Shown here one piece after another: positions 1,842-13,471 of a stretch of DNA of 64,000 bases. Both the position numbers and the translations under genes were made by a program. Within the stretch, counting starts at the first letter, position 1; each line of letters opens with the position of its first letter. The notes under the pieces are model-generated. The model had not been told where the DNA came from. It was given only the letters and a program-made list of their open reading frames with translations, and searched no databases. Source of the DNA: Escherichia coli (GTDB taxonomy: Bacteria > Pseudomonadota > Gammaproteobacteria > Enterobacterales > Enterobacteriaceae); the NCBI RefSeq assembly GCF_044324785.1, contig NZ_CP172127.1, one strand, 5' to 3'.

Positions 1842-4274
1842 ATGACCACACTGAAACTGGATACGCTCAGCGACCGCATTAAAGCGCACAAAAATGCGCT
1901 GGTGCATATTGTGAAACCGCCGGTCTGTACCGAGCGCGCGCAGCACTATACTGAGATGTATCAACAACATCTCGATAAGCCGATCCCGGTACGTCGCGCG
2001 CTGGCGCTGGCGCATCACCTGGCGAATCGCACCATCTGGATCAAGCACGATGAGTTGATCATTGGCAACCAGGCAAGCGAAGTTCGCGCCGCGCCGATCT
2101 TCCCGGAATATACCGTCTCCTGGATCGAAAAAGAGATTGATGATCTGGCGGATCGTCCGGGTGCTGGTTTTGCGGTGAGCGAAGAGAACAAACGTGTTCT
2201 GCATGAAGTGTGCCCTTGGTGGCGCGGTCAGACGGTACAGGATCGCTGCTACGGCATGTTTACCGATGAGCAAAAAGGTCTGCTGGCGACCGGAATCATT
2301 AAAGCGGAAGGCAATATGACCTCCGGCGATGCGCACCTGGCGGTGAATTTCCCGCTACTGCTGGAAAAAGGTCTTGATGGTCTGCGCGAGAAAGTAGCGG
2401 AACGTCGCTCGCGCATCAACCTGACGGTGCTGGAAGATTTGCACGGCGAGCAGTTCCTGAAAGCGATTGATATCGTGCTGGTGGCAGTCAGTGAACACAT
2501 TGAACGTTTCGCTGCCCTGGCGCGTGAAATGGCAGCCACTGAAACCCGCGAAAGCCGTCGCGATGAACTGCTGGCGATAGCAGAAAACTGCGATCTTATC
2601 GCCCACCAGCCGCCGCAGACTTTCTGGCAGGCGCTGCAACTGTGCTACTTCATCCAGTTGATTTTGCAGATCGAATCTAACGGTCACTCGGTATCGTTTG
2701 GTCGTATGGACCAGTATCTCTACCCGTACTATCGCCGCGACGTTGAACTGAACCAGACACTGGATCGTGAACACGCCATCGAGATGCTGCATAGCTGCTG
2801 GTTAAAATTGCTGGAAGTGAACAAAATCCGCTCCGGCTCGCACTCGAAAGCCTCTGCGGGAAGTCCGCTGTATCAGAACGTCACCATTGGCGGACAAAAT
2901 CTGGTTGATGGTCAACCAATGGACGCGGTGAATCCACTCTCTTACGCGATCCTCGAATCCTGCGGTCGCCTGCGTTCTACTCAGCCTAACCTCAGCGTGC
3001 GTTACCATGCAGGAATGAGCAACGATTTCCTCGACGCCTGCGTACAGGTGATCCGCTGCGGCTTCGGGATGCCGGCGTTCAACAACGACGAAATCGTCAT
3101 CCCGGAATTTATTAAACTCGGTATTGAACCGCAGGACGCTTACGACTATGCAGCGATTGGTTGTATCGAAACCGCCGTCGGTGGCAAATGGGGCTATCGC
3201 TGTACCGGCATGAGCTTTATCAACTTCGCCCGCGTGATGCTGGCGGCGCTGGAAGGCGGGCGTGATGCCACCAGCGGCAAAGTGTTCCTGCCACAAGAAA
3301 AAGCGTTGTCAGCGGGTAACTTCAACAACTTCGATGAAGTAATGGACGCATGGGATACGCAAATCCGTTACTACACGCGTAAATCAATCGAAATCGAATA
3401 TGTCGTCGACACCATGCTGGAAGAGAACGTACACGATATTCTCTGCTCGGCGCTGGTGGATGACTGTATTGAGCGAGCGAAAAGTATCAAGCAAGGCGGC
3501 GCTAAATATGACTGGGTTTCTGGCCTGCAGGTCGGCATTGCTAACCTCGGCAACAGCCTGGCGGCAGTGAAGAAACTGGTATTTGAACAGGGCGCGATTG
3601 GTCAGCAACAGCTGGCTGCCGCACTGGCGGATGACTTCGACGGCCTGACTCACGAGCAGCTGCGTCAGCGGCTGATTAACGGTGCGCCTAAGTACGGCAA
3701 CGACGATGATACTGTCGATACGCTGCTGGCTCGCGCTTATCAGACCTATATCGACGAACTAAAACAGTACCATAACCCGCGCTATGGTCGTGGTCCGGTT
3801 GGCGGCAATTATTACGCGGGTACGTCATCTATCTCCGCTAACGTACCCTTTGGCGCGCAGACGATGGCAACGCCGGACGGGCGTAAAGCCCACACCCCGC
3901 TGGCAGAAGGCGCTAGTCCGGCCTCCGGTACTGATCATCTTGGCCCTACTGCGGTCATTGGCTCAGTGGGTAAACTGCCTACGGCCGCGATTCTCGGCGG
4001 CGTGTTGCTCAACCAGAAACTGAATCCGGCAACGCTGGAGAACGAATCTGACAAGCAGAAACTGATGATCCTGCTACGCACCTTCTTTGAAGTGCATAAA
4101 GGCTGGCATATTCAGTACAACATCGTTTCCCGCGAAACGCTGCTGGAAGCGAAAAAACATCCGGATCAGTACCGCGATCTGGTAGTGCGTGTCGCGGGTT
4201 ATTCCGCCTTCTTCACTGCGCTCTCTCCAGACGCACAGGACGATATCATCGCCCGTACTGAACATATGCTGTAA
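1842..4274 (+). CDS. ybiW: glycyl radical enzyme, pyruvate formate-lyase family (PflF/YbiW)
   Basis: 810 aa; C-terminal glycyl radical motif RVAGYSAFF; immediately downstream of its activase. Confidence 0.9.
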
Positions 4275-5278: not shown

Positions 5279-5386
5279 CATCCTTTACATCACATCAAAT
5301 CATTAAACTTCCATTAACTTATTTATAACTTATATTGTCACATGCAAATCAGCATAGTTTCGAATGAAAGTTAATGCGAGGTGGTT

Positions 5387-6652
5387 ATGGCTTCTACTTT
5401 TACCAGCGACACATTGCCTGCCGATCACAAAGCAGCTATCCGTCAGATGAAGCACGCGCTGCGGGCGCAGCTTGGCGACGTCCAGCAGATCTTTAATCAG
5501 CTAAGCGATGACATTGCCACGCGAGTGGCTGAAATCAACGCACTCAAAGCACAGGGCGATGCCGTCTGGCCGGTGCTGTCTTATGCCGATATCAAAGCAG
5601 GTCATGTTACTGCAGAGCAGCGCGAACAAATTAAACGTCGCGGTTGTGCGGTGATAAAAGGCCATTTCCCCCGCGAACAAGCGCTAGGCTGGGATCAGTC
5701 GATGCTGGACTATCTGGACCGCAACCGCTTTGACGAGGTCTACAAAGGCCCCGGCGATAATTTCTTCGGGACACTCAGCGCTTCACGTCCCGAGATTTAC
5801 CCCATCTACTGGTCGCAGGCGCAAATGCAGGCCCGCCAGAGTGAAGAAATGGCGAATGTGCAGTCGTTTCTCAATCGTCTGTGGACATTTGAAAGTGATG
5901 GAAAGCAATGGTTTAACCCGGATGTGAGCGTCATCTACCCTGACCGTATCCGCCGCCGTCCGCCCGGAACGACCTCCAAAGGTCTTGGAGCGCATACCGA
6001 CTCCGGGGCGCTGGAACGCTGGCTGCTTCCAGCGTATCAGCACGTTTTCGCCAACGTCTTTAATGGCAATCTGGCGAAATACGATCCCTGGCATGCGGCA
6101 CATCGTACGGAAGTTGAAGAGTACACGGTGGACAACACCACCAAATGTTCCGTGTTTCGGACATTCCAGGGCTGGACAGCGCTCTCTGATATGCTGCCTG
6201 GTCAGGGGTTGCTGCACGTCGTGCCCATTCCTGAAGCCATGGCGTACGTACTGTTACGTCCGCTGCTTGATGATGTGCCGGAGGATGAACTGTGCGGCGT
6301 AGCGCCCGGAAGAGTGTTGCCGGTATCAGAGCAATGGCATCCACTGTTAATTGAGGCGTTAACCAGCATTCCAAAACTCGAGGCCGGAGACTCCGTCTGG
6401 TGGCACTGCGACGTCATCCATTCCGTTGCCCCCGTTGAAAATCAACAGGGTTGGGGCAACGTGATGTACATTCCTGCGGCACCGATGTGCGAGAAAAATC
6501 TTGCCTACGCGCACAAGGTGAAGGCCGCACTGGAAAAAGGCGCATCGCCGGGCGACTTCCCGCGCGAGGACTATGAAACAAACTGGGAAGGACGCTTTAC
6601 GCTTGCCGACCTCAACATTCACGGTAAGCGAGCGTTGGGAATCGACAGCTGA
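5387..6652 (+). CDS. ybiU: DUF1479-family protein YbiU
   Basis: ORF 5381..6652; ATG at 5387 has GAGG upstream; 421 aa recognised as YbiU. Confidence 0.85.
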   Translation: MASTFTSDTLPADHKAAIRQMKHALRAQLGDVQQIFNQLSDDIATRVAEINALKAQGDAVWPVLSYADIKAGHVTAEQREQIKRRGCAVIKGHFPREQALGWDQSMLDYLDRNRFDEVYKGPGDNFFGTLSASRPEIYPIYWSQAQMQARQSEEMANVQSFLNRLWTFESDGKQWFNPDVSVIYPDRIRRRPPGTTSKGLGAHTDSGALERWLLPAYQHVFANVFNGNLAKYDPWHAAHRTEVEEYTVDNTTKCSVFRTFQGWTALSDMLPGQGLLHVVPIPEAMAYVLLRPLLDDVPEDELCGVAPGRVLPVSEQWHPLLIEALTSIPKLEAGDSVWWHCDVIHSVAPVENQQGWGNVMYIPAAPMCEKNLAYAHKVKAALEKGASPGDFPREDYETNWEGRFTLADLNIHGKRALGIDS

Positions 6653-7722
6653 GTGTCGTACAGCCCTTCCCGTTCCACGGCGGTGTTCCCTTTTCCTGGG
6701 CGAACCCGCCGCACTGACTCCCGCACCGCCAATCGTCCGTGCAGCAGCAGCGAGCCCACCGGAGCATCCGGGCGAATCAGCCGCTGTTGCAACATTTGCA
6801 CCGCTTCATTGCCTAGCTCATCGCGTGGCACATGCACAGCCGTCAGGGGAACATCCTCGATTGCCGCAAGGTTAAAGCCGTCGATACTCATCACCGAGAC
6901 ATCCTGTGGTACGCGCAGACCACGACGATGTAGCGCATTTACCGTTCCCGCCGCCATAAAATCCCCGCCGACCAGAAACGCCGTCGGCAACGTCTTGCCA
7001 TTGGCGGCATCCAGCCACGCTCCGACCTTTTCTTCCGCTTCTTTAGCGCTAAAACTGCTGATATTCAGCAAATGACGGTCATGGTGAAAGGCCAGATTAT
7101 GCTGACGCCATGATTCTTTAATCCCTGCAAACCGCTGCTCCATAGTGTAGCGGCGCAGGCACATCACATTCATCACCTCCCGGTGACCCATTTCAAACAG
7201 ATAGCGGGCGGCGAACGCGCCAATTAACCGATGGTCCGGCGCAATCGCCGGGAGGCGCATTCGTTCATCACGGCAGTTGATCAGCACACAAGGCTTAGCG
7301 AGATCGGCGGCCAGATCATGGATGTGCGGATCGTCAATCCCCAGCAGGATCGCCGCCTGCGTATCTGCTTCATTCATCCGCGAGAGAAATAGCGCGGGAT
7401 CGCTGTCAAACTCCTCCAGCGCGCAGTAACGCAGCCGCACTTCATGCGGCGATAACGCTTTGCTGATGCTCTGGATCACACGGTAATAAAAGATATCAGA
7501 TCGTTGGTCAAAAGCGCGTTGCGGCGCGAAAATAATCAGGTTGTTCAGCAACATACGACCTGCTGCCATGCCATCCATCACGCCCAACTCACGCGCGCAG
7601 GCCAGCACCTGTTCGCGAGCGCGTGCACTGGTATTCGCTTTGCCAGCCAGCACCCGCGAAACCGTACTCGGCGATAGCCCGGTACGTGCGGCGATATCGG
7701 CGATTTTCAGCTTCTTGTCCAT
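6619..7722 (-). CDS. LacI-family transcriptional regulator (accessory locus)
   Basis: ORF 6619..7800 (-); likely start MDKKLKIADIAARTGLSPSTVSRVL (HTH at N-terminus) at 7722; periplasmic-binding-protein-like core; 3-prime end overlaps ybiU by 34 bp. Confidence 0.8.
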   Translation of the reverse strand: MDKKLKIADIAARTGLSPSTVSRVLAGKANTSARAREQVLACARELGVMDGMAAGRMLLNNLIIFAPQRAFDQRSDIFYYRVIQSISKALSPHEVRLRYCALEEFDSDPALFLSRMNEADTQAAILLGIDDPHIHDLAADLAKPCVLINCRDERMRLPAIAPDHRLIGAFAARYLFEMGHREVMNVMCLRRYTMEQRFAGIKESWRQHNLAFHHDRHLLNISSFSAKEAEEKVGAWLDAANGKTLPTAFLVGGDFMAAGTVNALHRRGLRVPQDVSVMSIDGFNLAAIEDVPLTAVHVPRDELGNEAVQMLQQRLIRPDAPVGSLLLHGRLAVRESVRRVRPGKGNTAVEREGLYDTQLSIPNARLP

Positions 7723-8016
7723 TTTGTGATCTGCCTCTAATTCGGAAATGACAGAATTTTCATGAGCAAAAAAGCCCATTCTGTCTGGCATTAAATCCAT
7801 TTCAGTAATGTATATCAGTCACTCATGGAAAAACGTGCACAAAACCCGCTTTCTTTCGCTTTTAGGGTCTCTTACTGTGAATTGGTAGAACAACTTCCAT
7901 ACAAAAATAATGGAAAAACGAACAACAAAGACTTTATTTATCAAAAAGTTAAAAGTGGTGTGACAACTCCATTCTGACGTTGCCGCACAAACCCTATACC
8001 ATTCTGTGGAGTGCAT

Positions 8017-9318
8017 ATGAGTCAGGGTATCAATAACGATATGACTGCCAGTAAACCGCGCCATATCGTCAAAAATCTGCGTTGGTGGATACTGGTCCTT
8101 TTTTTGCTCGGTGTTACTGTCAACTACATCACGCGTAACTCGCTGGGTATTCTCGCCCCCGAACTGAAAAGCAGCCTGGGGATTACCACCGAACAATATT
8201 CCTGGATTGTAGGTGCTTTCCAGCTCGCCTATACCCTATTCCAACCGTTGTGCGGATGGCTGATTGACGTCATTGGCCTCAAACTGGGCTTTATGATCTG
8301 CGCGGGACTGTGGGCACTGGCCTGTCTGATGCATGCGGGGGCGGGAAACTGGGTACATCTGGCGCTGTTGCGCTTCTTTATGGGCGGTGCGGAAGCCGCA
8401 GCAACCCCAGCAAACGCCAAAACCATCGGTGAATGGTTTCCAAAATCAGAACGCCCGATCGCCGCAGGCTGGGCAGGCGTCGGTTTTTCCATCGGTGCCA
8501 TGCTGGCCCCACCGATTATCTATTTTGCCCACGCTTCATTCGGCTGGCAGGGTGCATTTATGTTCACTGGCATCCTGGCGATGCTGTGGGTCGTGCTGTG
8601 GTGGGCGTTCTATCACAGCCCGGATAAGCATCCTAACCTCAGCAAAGCCGAGCTGGACTTTATTCGCCAGGATAACGAAGCGCCCCCGGTCAAGTTACCC
8701 TTTCTGACCGCACTGAAAACCGTGGGCAAAAATAAACGCTTTTACGGTATCGCTATCCCGGCCTTTATGGCAGAACCGGCGTGGGCGGTGATGAGTTTCT
8801 GGGTTCCGCTATACCTGTCCAAAACCTATGGCATGGACCTGAAGCAGATCGCATTATTCGCCTGGTTGCCGTTCCTCGCCGCTGATCTTGGCAGTATTGC
8901 CAGCGGCTATCTGACCAAACTTTACACCCGCCTGTTTGGGCTGAGTCGTGTGAACTCCGTTGTCGCATCATCGGTCAGTGGCGCATTCCTGATGGTTTCG
9001 CTGGCGGTGATGGCCTTTACCAATAACCCGTATATCGCCATCGTCCTTATCTCCATCGGCGGCTTCGGTCACCAGATCATCTCCTGCATGCTAAGCGCAC
9101 TGGTGGTGGAATCCTTCGACAAAGGTCAGATGGCCACTGTTAACGGCATGCGCGGTTCTGCCGCGTGGATCGCAAGTTTCCTGTTCTCCCTGATAATCGG
9201 GGTTACCGCAGACAAAATCGGCTTTAACCCCCTGTTTATCGCCATGGGCTTCTTTGACCTGATTGGCGCTTTCTTCCTGGTCACCTTTATTGCTGAACGT
9301 CGCGCAAAACGCGCCTGA
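8017..9318 (+). CDS. MFS transporter, anion:cation symporter family, ExuT (hexuronate transporter)-like
   Basis: ORF 8011..9318; ATG at 8017 has GGAG 5 nt upstream; N-terminal region aligns by eye with ExuT (LRWW..TRN...QYSWI...GEWFPKSER...IGAMLAPPI). Confidence 0.8.
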   Translation: MSQGINNDMTASKPRHIVKNLRWWILVLFLLGVTVNYITRNSLGILAPELKSSLGITTEQYSWIVGAFQLAYTLFQPLCGWLIDVIGLKLGFMICAGLWALACLMHAGAGNWVHLALLRFFMGGAEAAATPANAKTIGEWFPKSERPIAAGWAGVGFSIGAMLAPPIIYFAHASFGWQGAFMFTGILAMLWVVLWWAFYHSPDKHPNLSKAELDFIRQDNEAPPVKLPFLTALKTVGKNKRFYGIAIPAFMAEPAWAVMSFWVPLYLSKTYGMDLKQIALFAWLPFLAADLGSIASGYLTKLYTRLFGLSRVNSVVASSVSGAFLMVSLAVMAFTNNPYIAIVLISIGGFGHQIISCMLSALVVESFDKGQMATVNGMRGSAAWIASFLFSLIIGVTADKIGFNPLFIAMGFFDLIGAFFLVTFIAERRAKRA

Positions 9319-9332
9319 GAGTGGATGTAAAC

Positions 9333-11696
9333 ATGAAAACGCTGAAAAACTGGACCCTGCACAAACAGTCTGCCCACCACGTTGAACTGCTGGTCGATGG
9401 CCAGCATATCCTGTGCCTGTACGTGCTGGAAGAAAATCTGTTCCGCGTGCTGTTAAAACGCAAAGGCGAGCTGGCGCTGGATCGCACCTGGAGCATTGCT
9501 CCGGCGCAGGATGTGCCATGGGAAGGGCGCAGCCGCGAAGATCTCAGCGGCTTTAGCCTGCCCGCGTGGACATTGATCCAGCACGACGACACCGTGGTTA
9601 TCGCCACCGAGTCACTGCGTGTCACCGTTCACCAGCCGCTGTGGCTGGAGTGGCACTATCGTAACAACGAAGGCGAATGGCTGCCGTTGGTGAATGACCG
9701 CCCGACCAGCGCTTATCTGCTGAATGCCCACGGCGATGGCGTGGCACACTATCAGAGCCGTCGTAAAGATGAACGCTTTTATGGCCTCGGAGATAAAGCC
9801 GGCGACCTGCAACGCAACGGTAAACGTTACGAGATGCGTAACCTCGACGCGATGGGCTACAACGCCGTTAGTACTGACCCGCTGTACAAACACATTCCAT
9901 TCACCATCACCCGCCGCGATGACATTAGCTTCGGCCTGTTTTATGACAACCTCAGCAGCTGCTGGCTGGATCTGGGCAACGAGATCGACAACTACCACAC
10001 CGCCTATCGCCGCTGGCAGGCGGAAGCGGGTGATATCGACTACTACCTGTTTACCGGCGAACGCGTACTTGATATCACCAAAGCCTTCGTACGCCTGACC
10101 GGAAAAACCCTGTTCGGACCGAAATGGAGCCTGGGCTACAGCGGTTCAACTATGCACTACACCGATGCGCCGGACGCACAAAATCAGTTGATGAACTTTA
10201 TCCGCCTGTGTGAAGAACATGCAATTCCCTGCGATTCGTTCCAGCTCTCTTCCGGTTATACCTCAATTAACGGCAAACGCTATGTGTTCAACTGGAACTA
10301 CGACAAAGTGCCGCAGCCGAAAGTGATGAGCCAGGCATTTCACAATGCTGGTTTGCACCTGGCCGCCAATATCAAGCCGTGCCTGTTGCAGGATCACCCA
10401 CGCTATAACGAAGTGGCAGAAAGAGGACTGTTCATCCGTGATTCAGAAACAGATGAACCAGAACGTTCCAGCTTCTGGGATGACGAAGGTTCTAACCTCG
10501 ACTTTACTAATCCGCAGACCATCCAGTGGTGGCAGGAAGGCGTGACCACACAGCTTCTGGAGATGGGTATCGACTCCACCTGGAACGACAACAACGAATT
10601 CGAAGTATGGGACGGTGAAGCACGCTGTCACGGCTTTGGTCAGACGATCGCGATCAAACATATTCGCCCAGTGATGCCACTGCTGATGATGCGAGCCTCG
10701 ATGGAAGCCCAGCAGCGTTTCGCTCCGGAAAAACGTCCGTACTTGATCTCCCGCTCCGGCTGCGCGGGAATGCAGCGCTACGTGCAGACCTGGAGTGGCG
10801 ATAACCGCACTAGCTGGGACACTCTGCGCTACAACACCCGCATGGGTCTGGGGATGAGCCTCTCCGGGTTGTATAACCTCGGTCACGACGTCGGCGGTTT
10901 CTCCGGTGATAAACCGGACCCGGAACTGTTTGTACGCTGGGTACAAAACGGCGTGATGCATCCGCGCTTTACGATTCACTCATGGAACGATGACCATACC
11001 GTAAACGAACCGTGGATGTATCCGGGCGTCACTCCGGCGATCCGCAGCGCTATTGAGTTGCGCTATCGCCTGCTGCCCTACTTTTATACCCTGATGTGGC
11101 AGGCATACGCCGATGATGAACCAATGCTACGTCCGACTTTCCTTGACCACGAGCACGACGTTCAGACTTTTGAAGAGTGTGATGACTTCCTGCTTGGTCG
11201 CGATATTTTGGTTGCCAGCGTCGTAGAGCAAGGCGAGCGCCAGCGCCGTGTATGGCTGCCAGATAACGAAACTGGCTGGTACGATTTCTACAACGGCGAA
11301 TGGTTCAGTGGCGGTCAGTGGATCACCCTCGACGCACCGCTGGAGAAACTGCCGCTGATGGTGCGTGCCGGGGCTGGTCTACCGCTCAGCAAACGCATCA
11401 CCTATGTGAGCGCAGAACAAGACGATACCCGCGAACTGAAACTGTTCCCGCTGAAAGGTGTGGGCACAACGTCCGGCCTGCTGTTTGAAGACGATGGCGA
11501 AAGCTGGGGCTACCAAACTGGTAATGCGCTTTGGGTGGAATGGGAAATGGTTTGCGATGGGGCGACCATCAACCTGAAAGTCAACGCGCGCGGGGATTAT
11601 CGTCCTGCATGGAGTGCACTGAAAGTGTCATTACCATTGGAAGAAAAACGCACGCTGCTGGTCAATGGTGTTGAAGGGAGTGAATGGATGCGTTAA
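9333..11696 (+). CDS. glycoside hydrolase family 31 (alpha-glycosidase), specificity unknown
   Basis: ORF 9321..11696 (GTG at 9321 or ATG at 9333); GH31 motifs GIDSTWNDNNE (nucleophile region) and RSGCAGMQRYVQTWSGDNRTSW (acid/base region). Confidence 0.8.
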   Translation: MKTLKNWTLHKQSAHHVELLVDGQHILCLYVLEENLFRVLLKRKGELALDRTWSIAPAQDVPWEGRSREDLSGFSLPAWTLIQHDDTVVIATESLRVTVHQPLWLEWHYRNNEGEWLPLVNDRPTSAYLLNAHGDGVAHYQSRRKDERFYGLGDKAGDLQRNGKRYEMRNLDAMGYNAVSTDPLYKHIPFTITRRDDISFGLFYDNLSSCWLDLGNEIDNYHTAYRRWQAEAGDIDYYLFTGERVLDITKAFVRLTGKTLFGPKWSLGYSGSTMHYTDAPDAQNQLMNFIRLCEEHAIPCDSFQLSSGYTSINGKRYVFNWNYDKVPQPKVMSQAFHNAGLHLAANIKPCLLQDHPRYNEVAERGLFIRDSETDEPERSSFWDDEGSNLDFTNPQTIQWWQEGVTTQLLEMGIDSTWNDNNEFEVWDGEARCHGFGQTIAIKHIRPVMPLLMMRASMEAQQRFAPEKRPYLISRSGCAGMQRYVQTWSGDNRTSWDTLRYNTRMGLGMSLSGLYNLGHDVGGFSGDKPDPELFVRWVQNGVMHPRFTIHSWNDDHTVNEPWMYPGVTPAIRSAIELRYRLLPYFYTLMWQAYADDEPMLRPTFLDHEHDVQTFEECDDFLLGRDILVASVVEQGERQRRVWLPDNETGWYDFYNGEWFSGGQWITLDAPLEKLPLMVRAGAGLPLSKRITYVSAEQDDTRELKLFPLKGVGTTSGLLFEDDGESWGYQTGNALWVEWEMVCDGATINLKVNARGDYRPAWSALKVSLPLEEKRTLLVNGVEGSEWMR

Positions 11697-11875
11697 ATCA
11701 TTACCGGGGCCGGGAGGCGACTGCACCTTACCCGGTCCAGCCATCGAATCCTTTACCTCAGTATTTCACGCTGCAGGAAGGCAGCAAACCTGTAAACCCC
11801 GGGAGCTTAAATAAGTAAGTGACCGGGGTGAACAGGTGAAGCCAATGCATCTGCCGCATGAAAGACGGCGGGGAA

Positions 11876-13471
11876 TTAACCGTCGATCCCTTTACTACGC
11901 AGGTAATCTTCGTAATTACCGCTAAAGTCAATAACGCGTTCCGGGGTGATTTCCAGAATGCGGGTCGCCAGGGAGCTTACGAACTCACGGTCGTGTGAAA
12001 CAAAGATCAGCGTGCCCTGATACAGTTCCAGCGCCATGTTCAGCGACTCGATGGATTCCATATCCAGGTGGTTGGTCGGTTCGTCCATGATCAGAATGTT
12101 CGGCTTCTGCATCATTAACTTACCAAACAGCATCCGCCCTTTTTCCCCACCGGAAAGCACTTTCGCTGGTTTTTTGATGTCGTCCTGGCTGAACAGCAAA
12201 CGACCGAGAATGCTGCGTACCGCCTGCTCGTCATCGCCTTCCTGCTTCCACTGGCTCATCCATTCGAACACGGTCAGATCATTTTCAAACTCATATTCGT
12301 GGTCCTGAGCATAGTAACCAATGCGCGCGTTTTCAGACCATTTTACGGTGCCGCTGTCCGGTTGCAGATCGCCCACCAGCGTTTTCAGCAGCGTTGATTT
12401 ACCGACGCCGTTGGTACCCAGTACCGCAAGTTTTTCACCGACCTCCAGCAGCAGGTTGAGATTTTTAAACAGTGGACCGTTATCAAACCCTTTGGTCAGA
12501 CCTTCCACTTCCAGCGCGTTACGGAACAGTTTCTTATCCTGTTCAAAACGGATGAACGGGTTCTGACGGCTGGAGGCTTTCACCTCTTCCAGTTTGATTT
12601 TATCAATCTGGCGCGCGCGCGAAGTTGCCTGGCGAGATTTCGAGGCGTTGGCGCTAAAGCGGCTAACGAAAGATTGCAGCTCAGCAATCTGCGCTTTCTT
12701 CTTGGCGTTATCAGCCAGCAGACGTTCACGCGCCTGGGTCGCCGCCGTCATGTACTCATCGTAGTTGCCCGGATAAACGCGCAGCTCGCCGTAATCCAGA
12801 TCCGCCATATGGGTACAAACCATGTTAAGGAAGTGACGGTCGTGCGAGATGATGATCATGGTGCTGTCACGCTCGTTCAGCACCTGTTCCAGCCAACGAA
12901 TGGTGTCGATGTCGAGGTTGTTGGTCGGTTCGTCGAGCAGGAGAATGTCTGGATCAGCAAAAAGCGCCTGTGCCAGCAGCACACGCAGCTTCCAGCCAGG
13001 AGCAACTTCACTCATCGGGCCGTAGTGCTGTTCCACTGGAATTCCCACGCCAAGCAACAATTCACCGGCGCGAGCTTCCGCAGAGTAACCGTCCATTTCG
13101 CCGTATTTCACTTCCAGATCGGCCACTTTATAGCCGTCTTCTTCACTCATTTCCGGCAAAGCATAGATGCGGTCACGCTCCTGCTTCACTTCCCACAACT
13201 CTTTATGCCCCATGATCACCGTATCCAGCACAGTGAACTCTTCAAAGGCAAACTGATCCTGACGCAGCTTACCAATGCGCTCGTTGGGATCGAGGGAAAC
13301 GTTACCCAACGTCGGCTCTAAGTCGCCGCCGAGGATCTTCATAAAGGTGGATTTACCACTACCGTTCGCGCCAATCAGGCCGTAACGGTTGCCGCCGCCA
13401 AATTTGACGGAAATGTTTTCAAACAACGGCTTACTGCCGAACTGCATGGTGACGTTACTGGAAACTAACAC
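11876..13471 (-). CDS. ybiT: ABC-F family ATPase (tandem ABC domains) YbiT
   Basis: 531 aa; two Walker A motifs ([18 protein letters not shown]) and ABC signature motifs. Confidence 0.9.

Follow-up and report, generated by a model that had tools for sequence, protein, structure and literature searches.

A chromosomal cassette of Escherichia coli encoding a hexuronate-type transporter and a GH31 glycosidase, a candidate retaining alpha-D-glucuronidase

Glycoside hydrolase family 31 (GH31) is a well-studied and medically relevant family that includes GAA, glucosidase II, and the intestinal maltase and sucrase. The activities known from its bacterial members are those of alpha-glucosidase, alpha-xylosidase, alpha-galactosidase, alpha-GalNAc-ase, sulfoquinovosidase, lyase and transglycosylase. 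The known alpha-glucuronidases belong to other families, of which GH67 and GH115 act with inversion and GH4 uses NAD+ and Mn2+; the GH67 enzymes are the intracellular partners of aldouronate importers. Here we analyzed a stretch of 64,000 nucleotides of the Escherichia coli contig NZ_CP172127.1 (assembly GCF_044324785.1), referred to as the window, in which a gene for a GH31 glycosidase follows a gene for a transporter of the major facilitator superfamily (MFS). A divergently oriented gene for a LacI-family regulator was identified as the third member of this cassette, which an earlier interpretation of the DNA from its letters alone (the sequence-only reading) had missed. The substrate of the enzyme is probably an imported anionic alpha-glycoside, the cleavage of which yields D-glucuronate. 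The more specific assignment suggested by sequence comparison, a cytoplasmic retaining alpha-D-glucuronidase that would feed the UxaC/UxuAB pathway, is one to which we give even chances. The fold and the catalytic machinery are those of an ordinary GH31 enzyme; the novelty lies in the specificity predicted for it, in the remodelling of its pocket and in its consistent pairing with transporters of the hexuronate type. No GH31 or "retaining" alpha-glucuronidase, and no study of the cassette, was found in the literature searched, the GH31 subfamily survey lying outside it.

The enzyme had been described from the sequence as a 787-residue GH31 protein with the motifs WNDNNE and WSGDN, and this description held. 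The Pfam search detected PF13802 (residues 27-213), PF01055 (263-587, E-value 4.6e-88), PF21365 (596-681) and PF17137 (700-759), and together with Foldseek it recovered the TIM barrel, the N-terminal beta-sandwich and the C-terminal beta domains of the family. Both motifs were intact: WNDNNE occupies residues 417-422 with D419 as the predicted nucleophile, and WSGDN occupies residues 487-491 with D490 as the predicted acid/base. The two aspartates were invariant across a 100-sequence alignment, and R474 and H549, the Arg and His conserved in GH31, were retained as well. In the AlphaFold2 model (pLDDT 97.2) the beta strands start at residue 2, leaving no apparent signal peptide, and the modelled enzyme is thus probably cytoplasmic. 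The best Foldseek match was the dextranase FjDex31A, with a TM-score of 0.87, a probability of 1.0 and 26% identity. A search of 1.84 billion representative proteins revealed a large clade at 30-55% identity to the enzyme, covering Proteobacteria, Actinobacteria, Firmicutes (including a very common gut Eubacterium cluster) and Pelagibacteraceae, together with green and red algae, a liverwort, chytrids, Mucorales and choanoflagellates. Clade members occur in many genomes of Klebsiella, Enterobacter, Cronobacter, Serratia, Erwinia, Pectobacterium and the Pseudomonas syringae group. A characterised member was sought in this broad bacterial and eukaryotic clade, and none was found.

The sequence-only reading had also placed an ExuT/ACS-family MFS protein upstream of the enzyme, and the searches agreed with it. 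The best NCBIfam match of the transporter was TIGR00893 of the anion:cation symporter (ACS) subfamily, at 266 bits and below the cutoff of 395, and the protein showed 43% identity to ExuT of E. coli K-12 over 414 residues. Its sole solved relative was the galactonate transporter DgoT (E-value 1e-38). In the alignment with DgoT, the first transmembrane motif (YITRN against YVDRA) matched one Arg to another, and GAEAAATP aligned with IFEAPAFP; the Arg of DgoT reportedly binds carboxylate, as described in the DgoT structure paper. The homology to DgoT and ExuT and the aligned Arg place the protein in the ACS family (TC 2.A.1.14). It is not an ortholog of ExuT in the uxaCA-exuT-exuR context, given the 43% identity, another locus and another regulator. 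The MFS protein encoded adjacent to uxuA-uxaC in Erwinia was 81% identical to that of the window and 42% identical to ExuT, indicating that it is an ortholog of the former and not of ExuT.

The genomic surroundings of the enzyme were then compared among orthologous loci, which were collected by a scan with one genome per species that gave 80 loci at 58-90% identity; with three further loci, the GH31 gene was present in 82. The loci were analyzed by open reading frame (ORF) calling, clustering and NCBIfam naming of the recurrent families. They derived from Enterobacterales, the Pseudomonas syringae group, Aeromonas, Vibrio, Marinomonas, Pasteurellaceae and several Alphaproteobacteria. A gene for an anion transporter lay directly upstream of the GH31 gene on the same strand in 80 of the 82 loci, encoding an ExuT-like MFS protein in 69 and DctM, the large permease of a tripartite ATP-independent periplasmic (TRAP) transporter, in 11. 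The median gap between the MFS and GH31 genes was 8 bp in our own ORF calls, and pairing of transporter and enzyme by chance is excluded. TRAP systems are transporters of the carboxylate type, and the TRAP binding protein of some of these loci was closest to the solved DctP-family proteins 4n8y, 4n15 and 4mhf, which we take to be hexuronate complexes.

The loci differed in what surrounded this pair. A LacI-family regulator flanked the MFS and GH31 genes in 58 of the 82 loci, and these had no catabolic genes nearby. The loci lacking it (19-21) carried instead the genes for UxaC, UxuA, fructuronate reductase/D-mannonate oxidoreductase (UxuB), KdgK, Eda and a UxuR-like regulator, with a mannonate dehydratase matching TIGR00695 at 735 bits; they were found in Erwinia, Pantoea, Aeromonas, Vibrio, Marinomonas, Pasteurellaceae, Pseudovibrio, Pannonibacter and Zophobihabitans. 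No UxaA or UxaB family emerged from the clustering of the orthologous loci, indicating that the glucuronate branch, rather than the galacturonate one, is the linked pathway. Gene order leaves little doubt that the GH31 gene is co-expressed with glucuronate genes: it is DctQ-DctM-GH31-UxuB-UxaC, all on one strand, in Vibrio hannami and UxuB-UxaC-MFS-GH31 in Zophobihabitans, and in Erwinia UxuR, UxaC and UxuA lie on one strand opposed to MFS-GH31. Catabolic genes for a second sugar were not recurrent in the clustering of these loci. The neighbors of the LacI-type loci were unrelated synteny blocks that differed by genus, and are thus uninformative on the aglycone.

The link to uronate was still present in clade members at 39-47% identity. 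The closest 50%-cluster representatives (P0121, P0122 and P0124) lay only on short metagenomic contigs, and their surroundings were uninformative. Vibrio mediterranei combined TRAP, GH31, UxuB, UxaC, KdgK and Eda, and Paraburkholderia combined an ACS-family MFS protein, GH31 and a porin. Two metagenomic loci (L095:9001-14072 and L096:6399-11481; 45-46% identity) carried UxaC nearby, along with BshB/MshB-like PIG-L de-N-acetylases and an unannotated GDE_C/MGH1-like hydrolase of the (alpha/alpha)6 type with 618-648 residues; this set suggests a larger substrate containing GlcNAc and uronate in these organisms. In a gut Eubacterium sp. (L098:6251-11304), representing a cluster of 6055 members, a GPH/MFS_2 carrier, a type-B carboxylesterase and the GH31 enzyme were encoded in an apparent operon, and the esterase would fit an esterified uronic acid as the substrate. 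As a separate observation, the operon of Vibrio mediterranei (L094:4261-13381) also contained an L-fucose-mutarotase-like gene (123 bits against a cutoff of 141), a psicose-epimerase/IolO-like gene and a gene for a 501-residue protein with a Fucose_iso_C domain. As speculation, this operon would fit a substrate of the GlcA-alpha-fucose type, such as the branches of brown-algal fucoidan.

We examined the residues aligned to the -1 subsite of canonical enzymes by counting motif conservation over 81 cluster representatives of the clade. S306, S307, G308, R316, N346, K348, N420 and R545 were kept at 89-100%. At six of these positions (S306, S307, G308, N346, K348 and N420), the corresponding residues in canonical relatives are D, I, D/H, I, D and M, respectively. 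The clade sequence after strand beta3 was (Q/H)-L-S-S-G-Y in place of L-D-I-(D/H)-Y, that on strand beta4 was N-I-K-P in place of I-x-D-P, that after the nucleophile was WNDNNE in place of WNDMNE, and that on strand beta8 was P-R-F-x-I-H in place of P-(L/F)-F-R-N-H. The same replacements were visible in the alignments to glucosidase II and FjDex31A. The pocket of a canonical alpha-glucosidase, with Asp-Ile-(Asp/Glu/His) on beta3, Ile-x-Asp-Pro on beta4 and Met, was therefore not found, and S306-S307-G308, N346-I-K348-P and N420 stood there instead. We take these positions to equal D327, I328, I364 and M444 of MGAM and D404, I441 and M519 of GAA, and presume that they face the -1 sugar on its C4-C6 side. 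In the AlphaFold2 model the substituted residues lie at the C-terminal ends of beta3 (302-305), beta4 (342-347) and the nucleophile strand (415-418), corresponding to the catalytic face. By sequence, the predicted net change of the pocket is a loss of acidic and hydrophobic side chains and a gain of polar and basic ones. N-x-K is the carboxylate-binding motif of the GH2 beta-glucuronidases, and N346-I-K348 recalls it by analogy. The sulfoquinovosidase YihQ was compared by hhalign, as MAFFT did not align the beta3 region of the two enzymes reliably. With a probability of 99.9, the invariant R316 aligned with R301 of YihQ, which belongs to the motif recognising the sulfonate of sulfoquinovose (PMC12780224).

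Public annotations name the protein "alpha-glucosidase", and its best solved relatives are alpha-glucosidases or a dextranase that share the catalytic Asp pair, R474 and H549. It might accordingly be read as an ordinary neutral alpha-glucosidase acting on disaccharides of the nigerose, kojibiose or isomaltose type, with an ExuT-like carrier that is meaningless for specificity. These names, including the ones obtained by Foldseek against AFDB50, are generic and those of the public annotations are automatic, and the NCBIfam equivalog models all scored far below their cutoffs, at 305 against 800 bits for the MalA alpha-glucosidase, 230 against 606 for the YicI alpha-xylosidase (NF007940) and 138 against 553 for the YihQ type (NF007746). 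Clear orthology to a characterised neutral alpha-glucosidase or xylosidase, which the sequence-only reading had named as an outcome that would speak against an acidic substrate, was thus not seen, and identity to the best structures was only 26%. The canonical Asp, Ile and Met of the pocket are gone, and the anion transporters paired with the enzyme come from two unrelated carrier families and are set in glucuronate operons. We consider a neutral alpha-glucosidase improbable.

Several observations favor the reading of the enzyme as an alpha-glucuronidase (EC 3.2.1.139-like). Throughout the clade, the substitutions are located at glycone-pocket positions and render this pocket polar and basic. 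Both the -1 pocket and the link to uronate stay constant over the clade, whereas the transporters (ACS-family MFS, TRAP, GPH and ABC) and the accessory enzymes differ, a pattern to be expected from a fixed glycone combined with a variable aglycone. The orthologous loci also show no recurrent pathway for a second sugar. The cassette would then be an operon of two genes under LacI control that serves the use of a small alpha-D-glucuronide (GlcA-alpha-OR). This anionic glycoside would be taken up by the ExuT paralog, and the cytoplasmic GH31 enzyme would hydrolyse it by double displacement with D419 as the nucleophile and D490 as the acid/base. The D-glucuronate set free would enter the core pathway of UxaC, UxuB, UxuA, KdgK and Eda. 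According to the alignments, the C6 carboxylate could be accommodated through the exchange of the residues on the C4-C6 side, with Ser-Ser-Gly replacing Asp-Ile-Asp/Glu after beta3, Asn-Ile-Lys replacing Ile-x-Asp on beta4 and Asn replacing the Met after the nucleophile, and Arg316, aligned with the sulfonate-binding Arg of YihQ, may contribute further. The gene content, the homologies, the catalytic motifs, the conserved substitutions and the linkage to glucuronate genes and anion transporters are observations; we infer from them that glucuronate is the glycone, and likewise the roles of the individual residues and the nature of the aglycone. The extension of this assignment to the whole clade, by which the protein would belong to a large pan-domain GH31 subfamily of retaining alpha-D-glucuronidases, is put forward tentatively, as somewhat doubtful.

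Other points weigh against the alpha-glucuronidase reading. Most of the Enterobacterales cassettes had no adjacent catabolic genes. By sequence, both the ExuT paralog and the binding protein of the TRAP system are similar to carriers of free hexuronate, so that the TRAP loci may import free glucuronate with the GH31 gene merely co-regulated. A Pelagibacteraceae member of the clade (L099:9001-13483) was not near uronate genes, lying beside a split thiamine pyrophosphate (TPP) enzyme that resembles sulfopyruvate decarboxylase. Finally, an enzyme acting on a substrate with glucuronate as the aglycone would account for the nearby glucuronate genes just as well.

In the last case, an alpha-glycosidase of the glucosidase, xylosidase or GlcN/GlcNAc type would cleave an imported X-alpha-(1->n)-GlcA into GlcA and a neutral sugar. 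The same linkage to glucuronate catabolism and to anion transporters would result, as the carriers need recognise only the GlcA moiety. Such disaccharides occur in nature, for example as GlcNAc-alpha-1,4-GlcA within heparosan or as Xyl-alpha-1,3-GlcA within matriglycan, and the PIG-L/BshB-like de-N-acetylases adjoining the two distant metagenomic members, which act on alpha-GlcNAc glycosides, and the (alpha/alpha)6-type hydrolase beside them are in line with this idea. The substitutions, however, fall on the -1 (glycone) positions of canonical GH31 enzymes and include the loss of the beta3 Asp, whereas a normal alpha-glucosidase would be expected to keep the canonical residues. The pocket has become more polar and basic, and is not blocked as in xylosidases, which is done by Cys-Phe at this place in YicI. 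The lack of recurrent catabolic genes for a second sugar in the orthologous loci also speaks against glucuronate as the aglycone, which we regard as unlikely, though with an appreciable chance.

The acidic alpha-glycoside proposed by the sequence-only reading included both a uronide-like and a sulfoquinovoside-like compound. The uronide branch gained ground from the glucuronate loci, the replacement of the MFS protein by TRAP and the exchanged pocket residues, and the sulfoquinovoside branch lost it. The alignment of R316 with R301 of YihQ would be consistent with a second kind of sulfoquinovosidase, or with an enzyme that hydrolyses some other 6-anionic glucoside (6-sulfo or 6-phospho) in place of a carboxylate, and sulfoquinovosidase activity has evolved more than once within GH31 (PMC12780224). 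The Pelagibacteraceae member also agrees with such a substrate. At 40% identity it keeps the SSG and WNDNNE motifs; an ABC sugar transporter precedes the GH31 gene, and genes for TPP_enzyme_N and TPP_enzyme_C proteins (165 and 190 residues) and a 2-hydroxyacid dehydrogenase follow it, so that the SAR11 relatives may use a sulfonated or otherwise different substrate. Against a sulfoquinovosidase, the Q/E-R-W-Y motif (Q288, R301, W304 and Y508) by which YihQ recognises the sulfonate and side chain, as defined in PMC12780224, was not found as a whole in the cassette enzyme. F319 stands at W304 and F523 at Y508, leaving the triad R-W-Y without its W and Y, and hhalign gave no counterpart of Q288 and D289. 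The score in the YihQ equivalog model was low as given above, and the clustering of the 82 orthologous loci yielded glucuronate genes and no sulfoglycolysis genes. The marine sulfoquinovosidase clade SqgH lies elsewhere in GH31, near GH31_3 and GH31_6, and uses different residues, R302, T377, K412 and F513 (PMC12780224); identity with SqgH was ruled out by the published lineage and residues, the two being set apart by that description only. A sulfoquinovosidase or a related 6-anionic specificity thus seems very improbable for the enzyme of the window.

If the enzyme is an alpha-D-glucuronidase, speculative candidates for its substrate are aldouronates of xylan, for example (Me)GlcA-alpha-1,2-Xyl, the glucuronosylglycerol of GlcADG lipids, and the GlcA-alpha-1,2-inositol of plant glycosyl inositol phosphorylceramide (GIPC). 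Alpha-glucuronosylglycerol is the carboxylate analogue of sulfoquinovosylglycerol, which YihQ cleaves. A retaining alpha-glucuronidase would, if true, be a new activity in GH31 and also a new mechanism class for the cleavage of alpha-glucuronides, as the known alpha-glucuronidases invert or depend on NAD+. It would imply an unrecognised route for the recycling of alpha-glucuronides such as xylan aldouronates, the glucuronosylglycerol of GlcADG lipids or the GlcA-inositol of GIPC sphingolipids, a strain-variable nutrient niche for E. coli and other enterics, and possibly a carbon source that has been missed in gut, plant and marine environments. As the clade is widespread, a single biochemical assignment would re-annotate thousands of "alpha-glucosidase" entries. 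In work by Bi et al. from 2009, Enterobacter asburiae JDR-1 is said to ferment methylglucuronoxylose after uptake and intracellular cleavage, and we know of no enzyme assigned to the cleavage step in this strain. The cassette was present in the sampled E. asburiae genome, and may explain this earlier observation.

The layout of the cassette in the window is given in Table 1. Many complete E. coli genomes matched the 4.1 kb around the GH31 gene at 99.6% identity, and the RefSeq order at the identical locus was ybiU, the LacI-family regulator (reverse), MFS, GH31 and ybiT. The ORF of the GH31 enzyme (9321-11696, plus strand) opens with GTG, and the ATG at 9333 gives the 787-residue RefSeq protein, named "glycoside hydrolase family 31 protein". 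The distance from the stop of the MFS gene to this start was 14 bp. The ORF of the regulator runs to 7800, whereas the RefSeq start is 7779; the protein matched RbsR, CytR and PurR in NCBIfam, each below its own cutoff. In the divergent promoter region (7826-7925), TGGAAAAACG was present twice, the copies being approximately 80 bp apart. A palindromic LacI-family operator or inverted repeat was sought in 7780-8016, and no clear one was detected. A weak sigma-70-like match (9/12) at 7882-7911 on the plus strand was no more frequent than in shuffled sequence, and is thus not evidence of function.

Table 1. Coordinates of the cassette genes and their flanks in the window
Feature	Coordinates	Strand	Remarks
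LacI-family transcriptional regulator	6619..7779	-	RefSeq annotation of 99.6% identical locus
Divergent intergenic region, putative control region	7780..8016	.	Between regulator and MFS gene
ExuT-paralogous MFS, anion:cation symporter (ACS family)	8017..9318	+	433 aa; predicted importer of the GH31 substrate
GH31 glycosidase	9333..11696	+	787 aa; Pfam, motifs; predicted alpha-D-glucuronidase
ybiU	5381..6652	+	Left flank; outside the system
ybiT (ABC-F ATPase)	11876..13471	-	Right flank; outside the system

Of 5426 complete E. coli genomes, 577 (approximately 11%) carry the cassette, which is inserted between ybiU and ybiT and always lies on the chromosome. In K-12, ybiU directly adjoins ybiT, and the cassette (6619-11875 of the window) is absent. 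The same site with the same flanks was occupied in Enterobacter, Citrobacter, Kluyvera, Leclercia, Kosakonia and Salmonella enterica subsp. diarizonae. The shared site in related genera and the patchy presence in E. coli suggest that the cassette was ancestral at the ybiU-ybiT site and was later lost from most E. coli, rather than gained recently. Further upstream, at 1842-4274 and 910-1836, the window contains ybiW/ybiY for a glycyl-radical enzyme and its activase, fsa, and ybiV for a sugar phosphatase. These are ordinary core genes of E. coli, conserved together with the cassette only within the Enterobacteriaceae synteny block.

Among known systems, the closest in structure were glucosidase II of the murine ER (PDB 5f0e), FjDex31A of Flavobacterium johnsoniae (PDB 6jr6) and MalA of Sulfolobus, with the same four domains and (beta/alpha)8 fold. 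The glucosidase II-type enzymes resembled the cassette enzyme with TM-scores of 0.84-0.87 and phmmer E-values of 1e-78 to 1e-80, and have the same catalytic Asp pair, Arg and His. They differed in sharing only approximately 26% identity, in having Asp-Ile-Glu/Gly, Ile-x-Asp and WNDMNE where the cassette enzyme has Ser-Ser-Gly, Asn-Ile-Lys and WNDNNE, and in that the latter is partnered with anion transporters and glucuronate genes. The alpha-xylosidase YicI was 23% identical, and neither its Cys-Phe after the beta3 Asp nor its nucleophile motif K-T-D-F-G-E was matched.

The closest in organization was the yih cluster with YihQ (GH31_13), a cytoplasmic GH31 enzyme for a 6-anionic alpha-glucoside that is encoded adjacent to a transporter and feeds a dedicated pathway, features that are predicted for the cassette. 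The similarity to YihQ chains reached an E-value of only 1e-31, and the yih cluster uses the carriers YihO/YihP and sulfoglycolysis, in contrast to the ACS-family MFS or TRAP transporters and the glucuronate pathway linked to the cassette enzyme. The ExuT/UxaC/UxuAB system of E. coli is related through the MFS protein, an ExuT paralog, and through the loci of other bacteria in which the pair is set among UxaC, UxuA, UxuB and a UxuR-like regulator; it differs in that the regulator of the E. coli cassette is of the LacI type and not of the GntR type, and in that the MFS protein of the cassette is always coupled to a glycosidase. The alpha-glucuronidases of GH67, GH115 (xylan) and GH4 catalyze the reaction predicted here, the release of D-glucuronate, with unrelated folds and mechanisms. 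Unlike these enzymes, the GH31 enzyme of the cassette would act with retention via a covalent glycosyl-enzyme.

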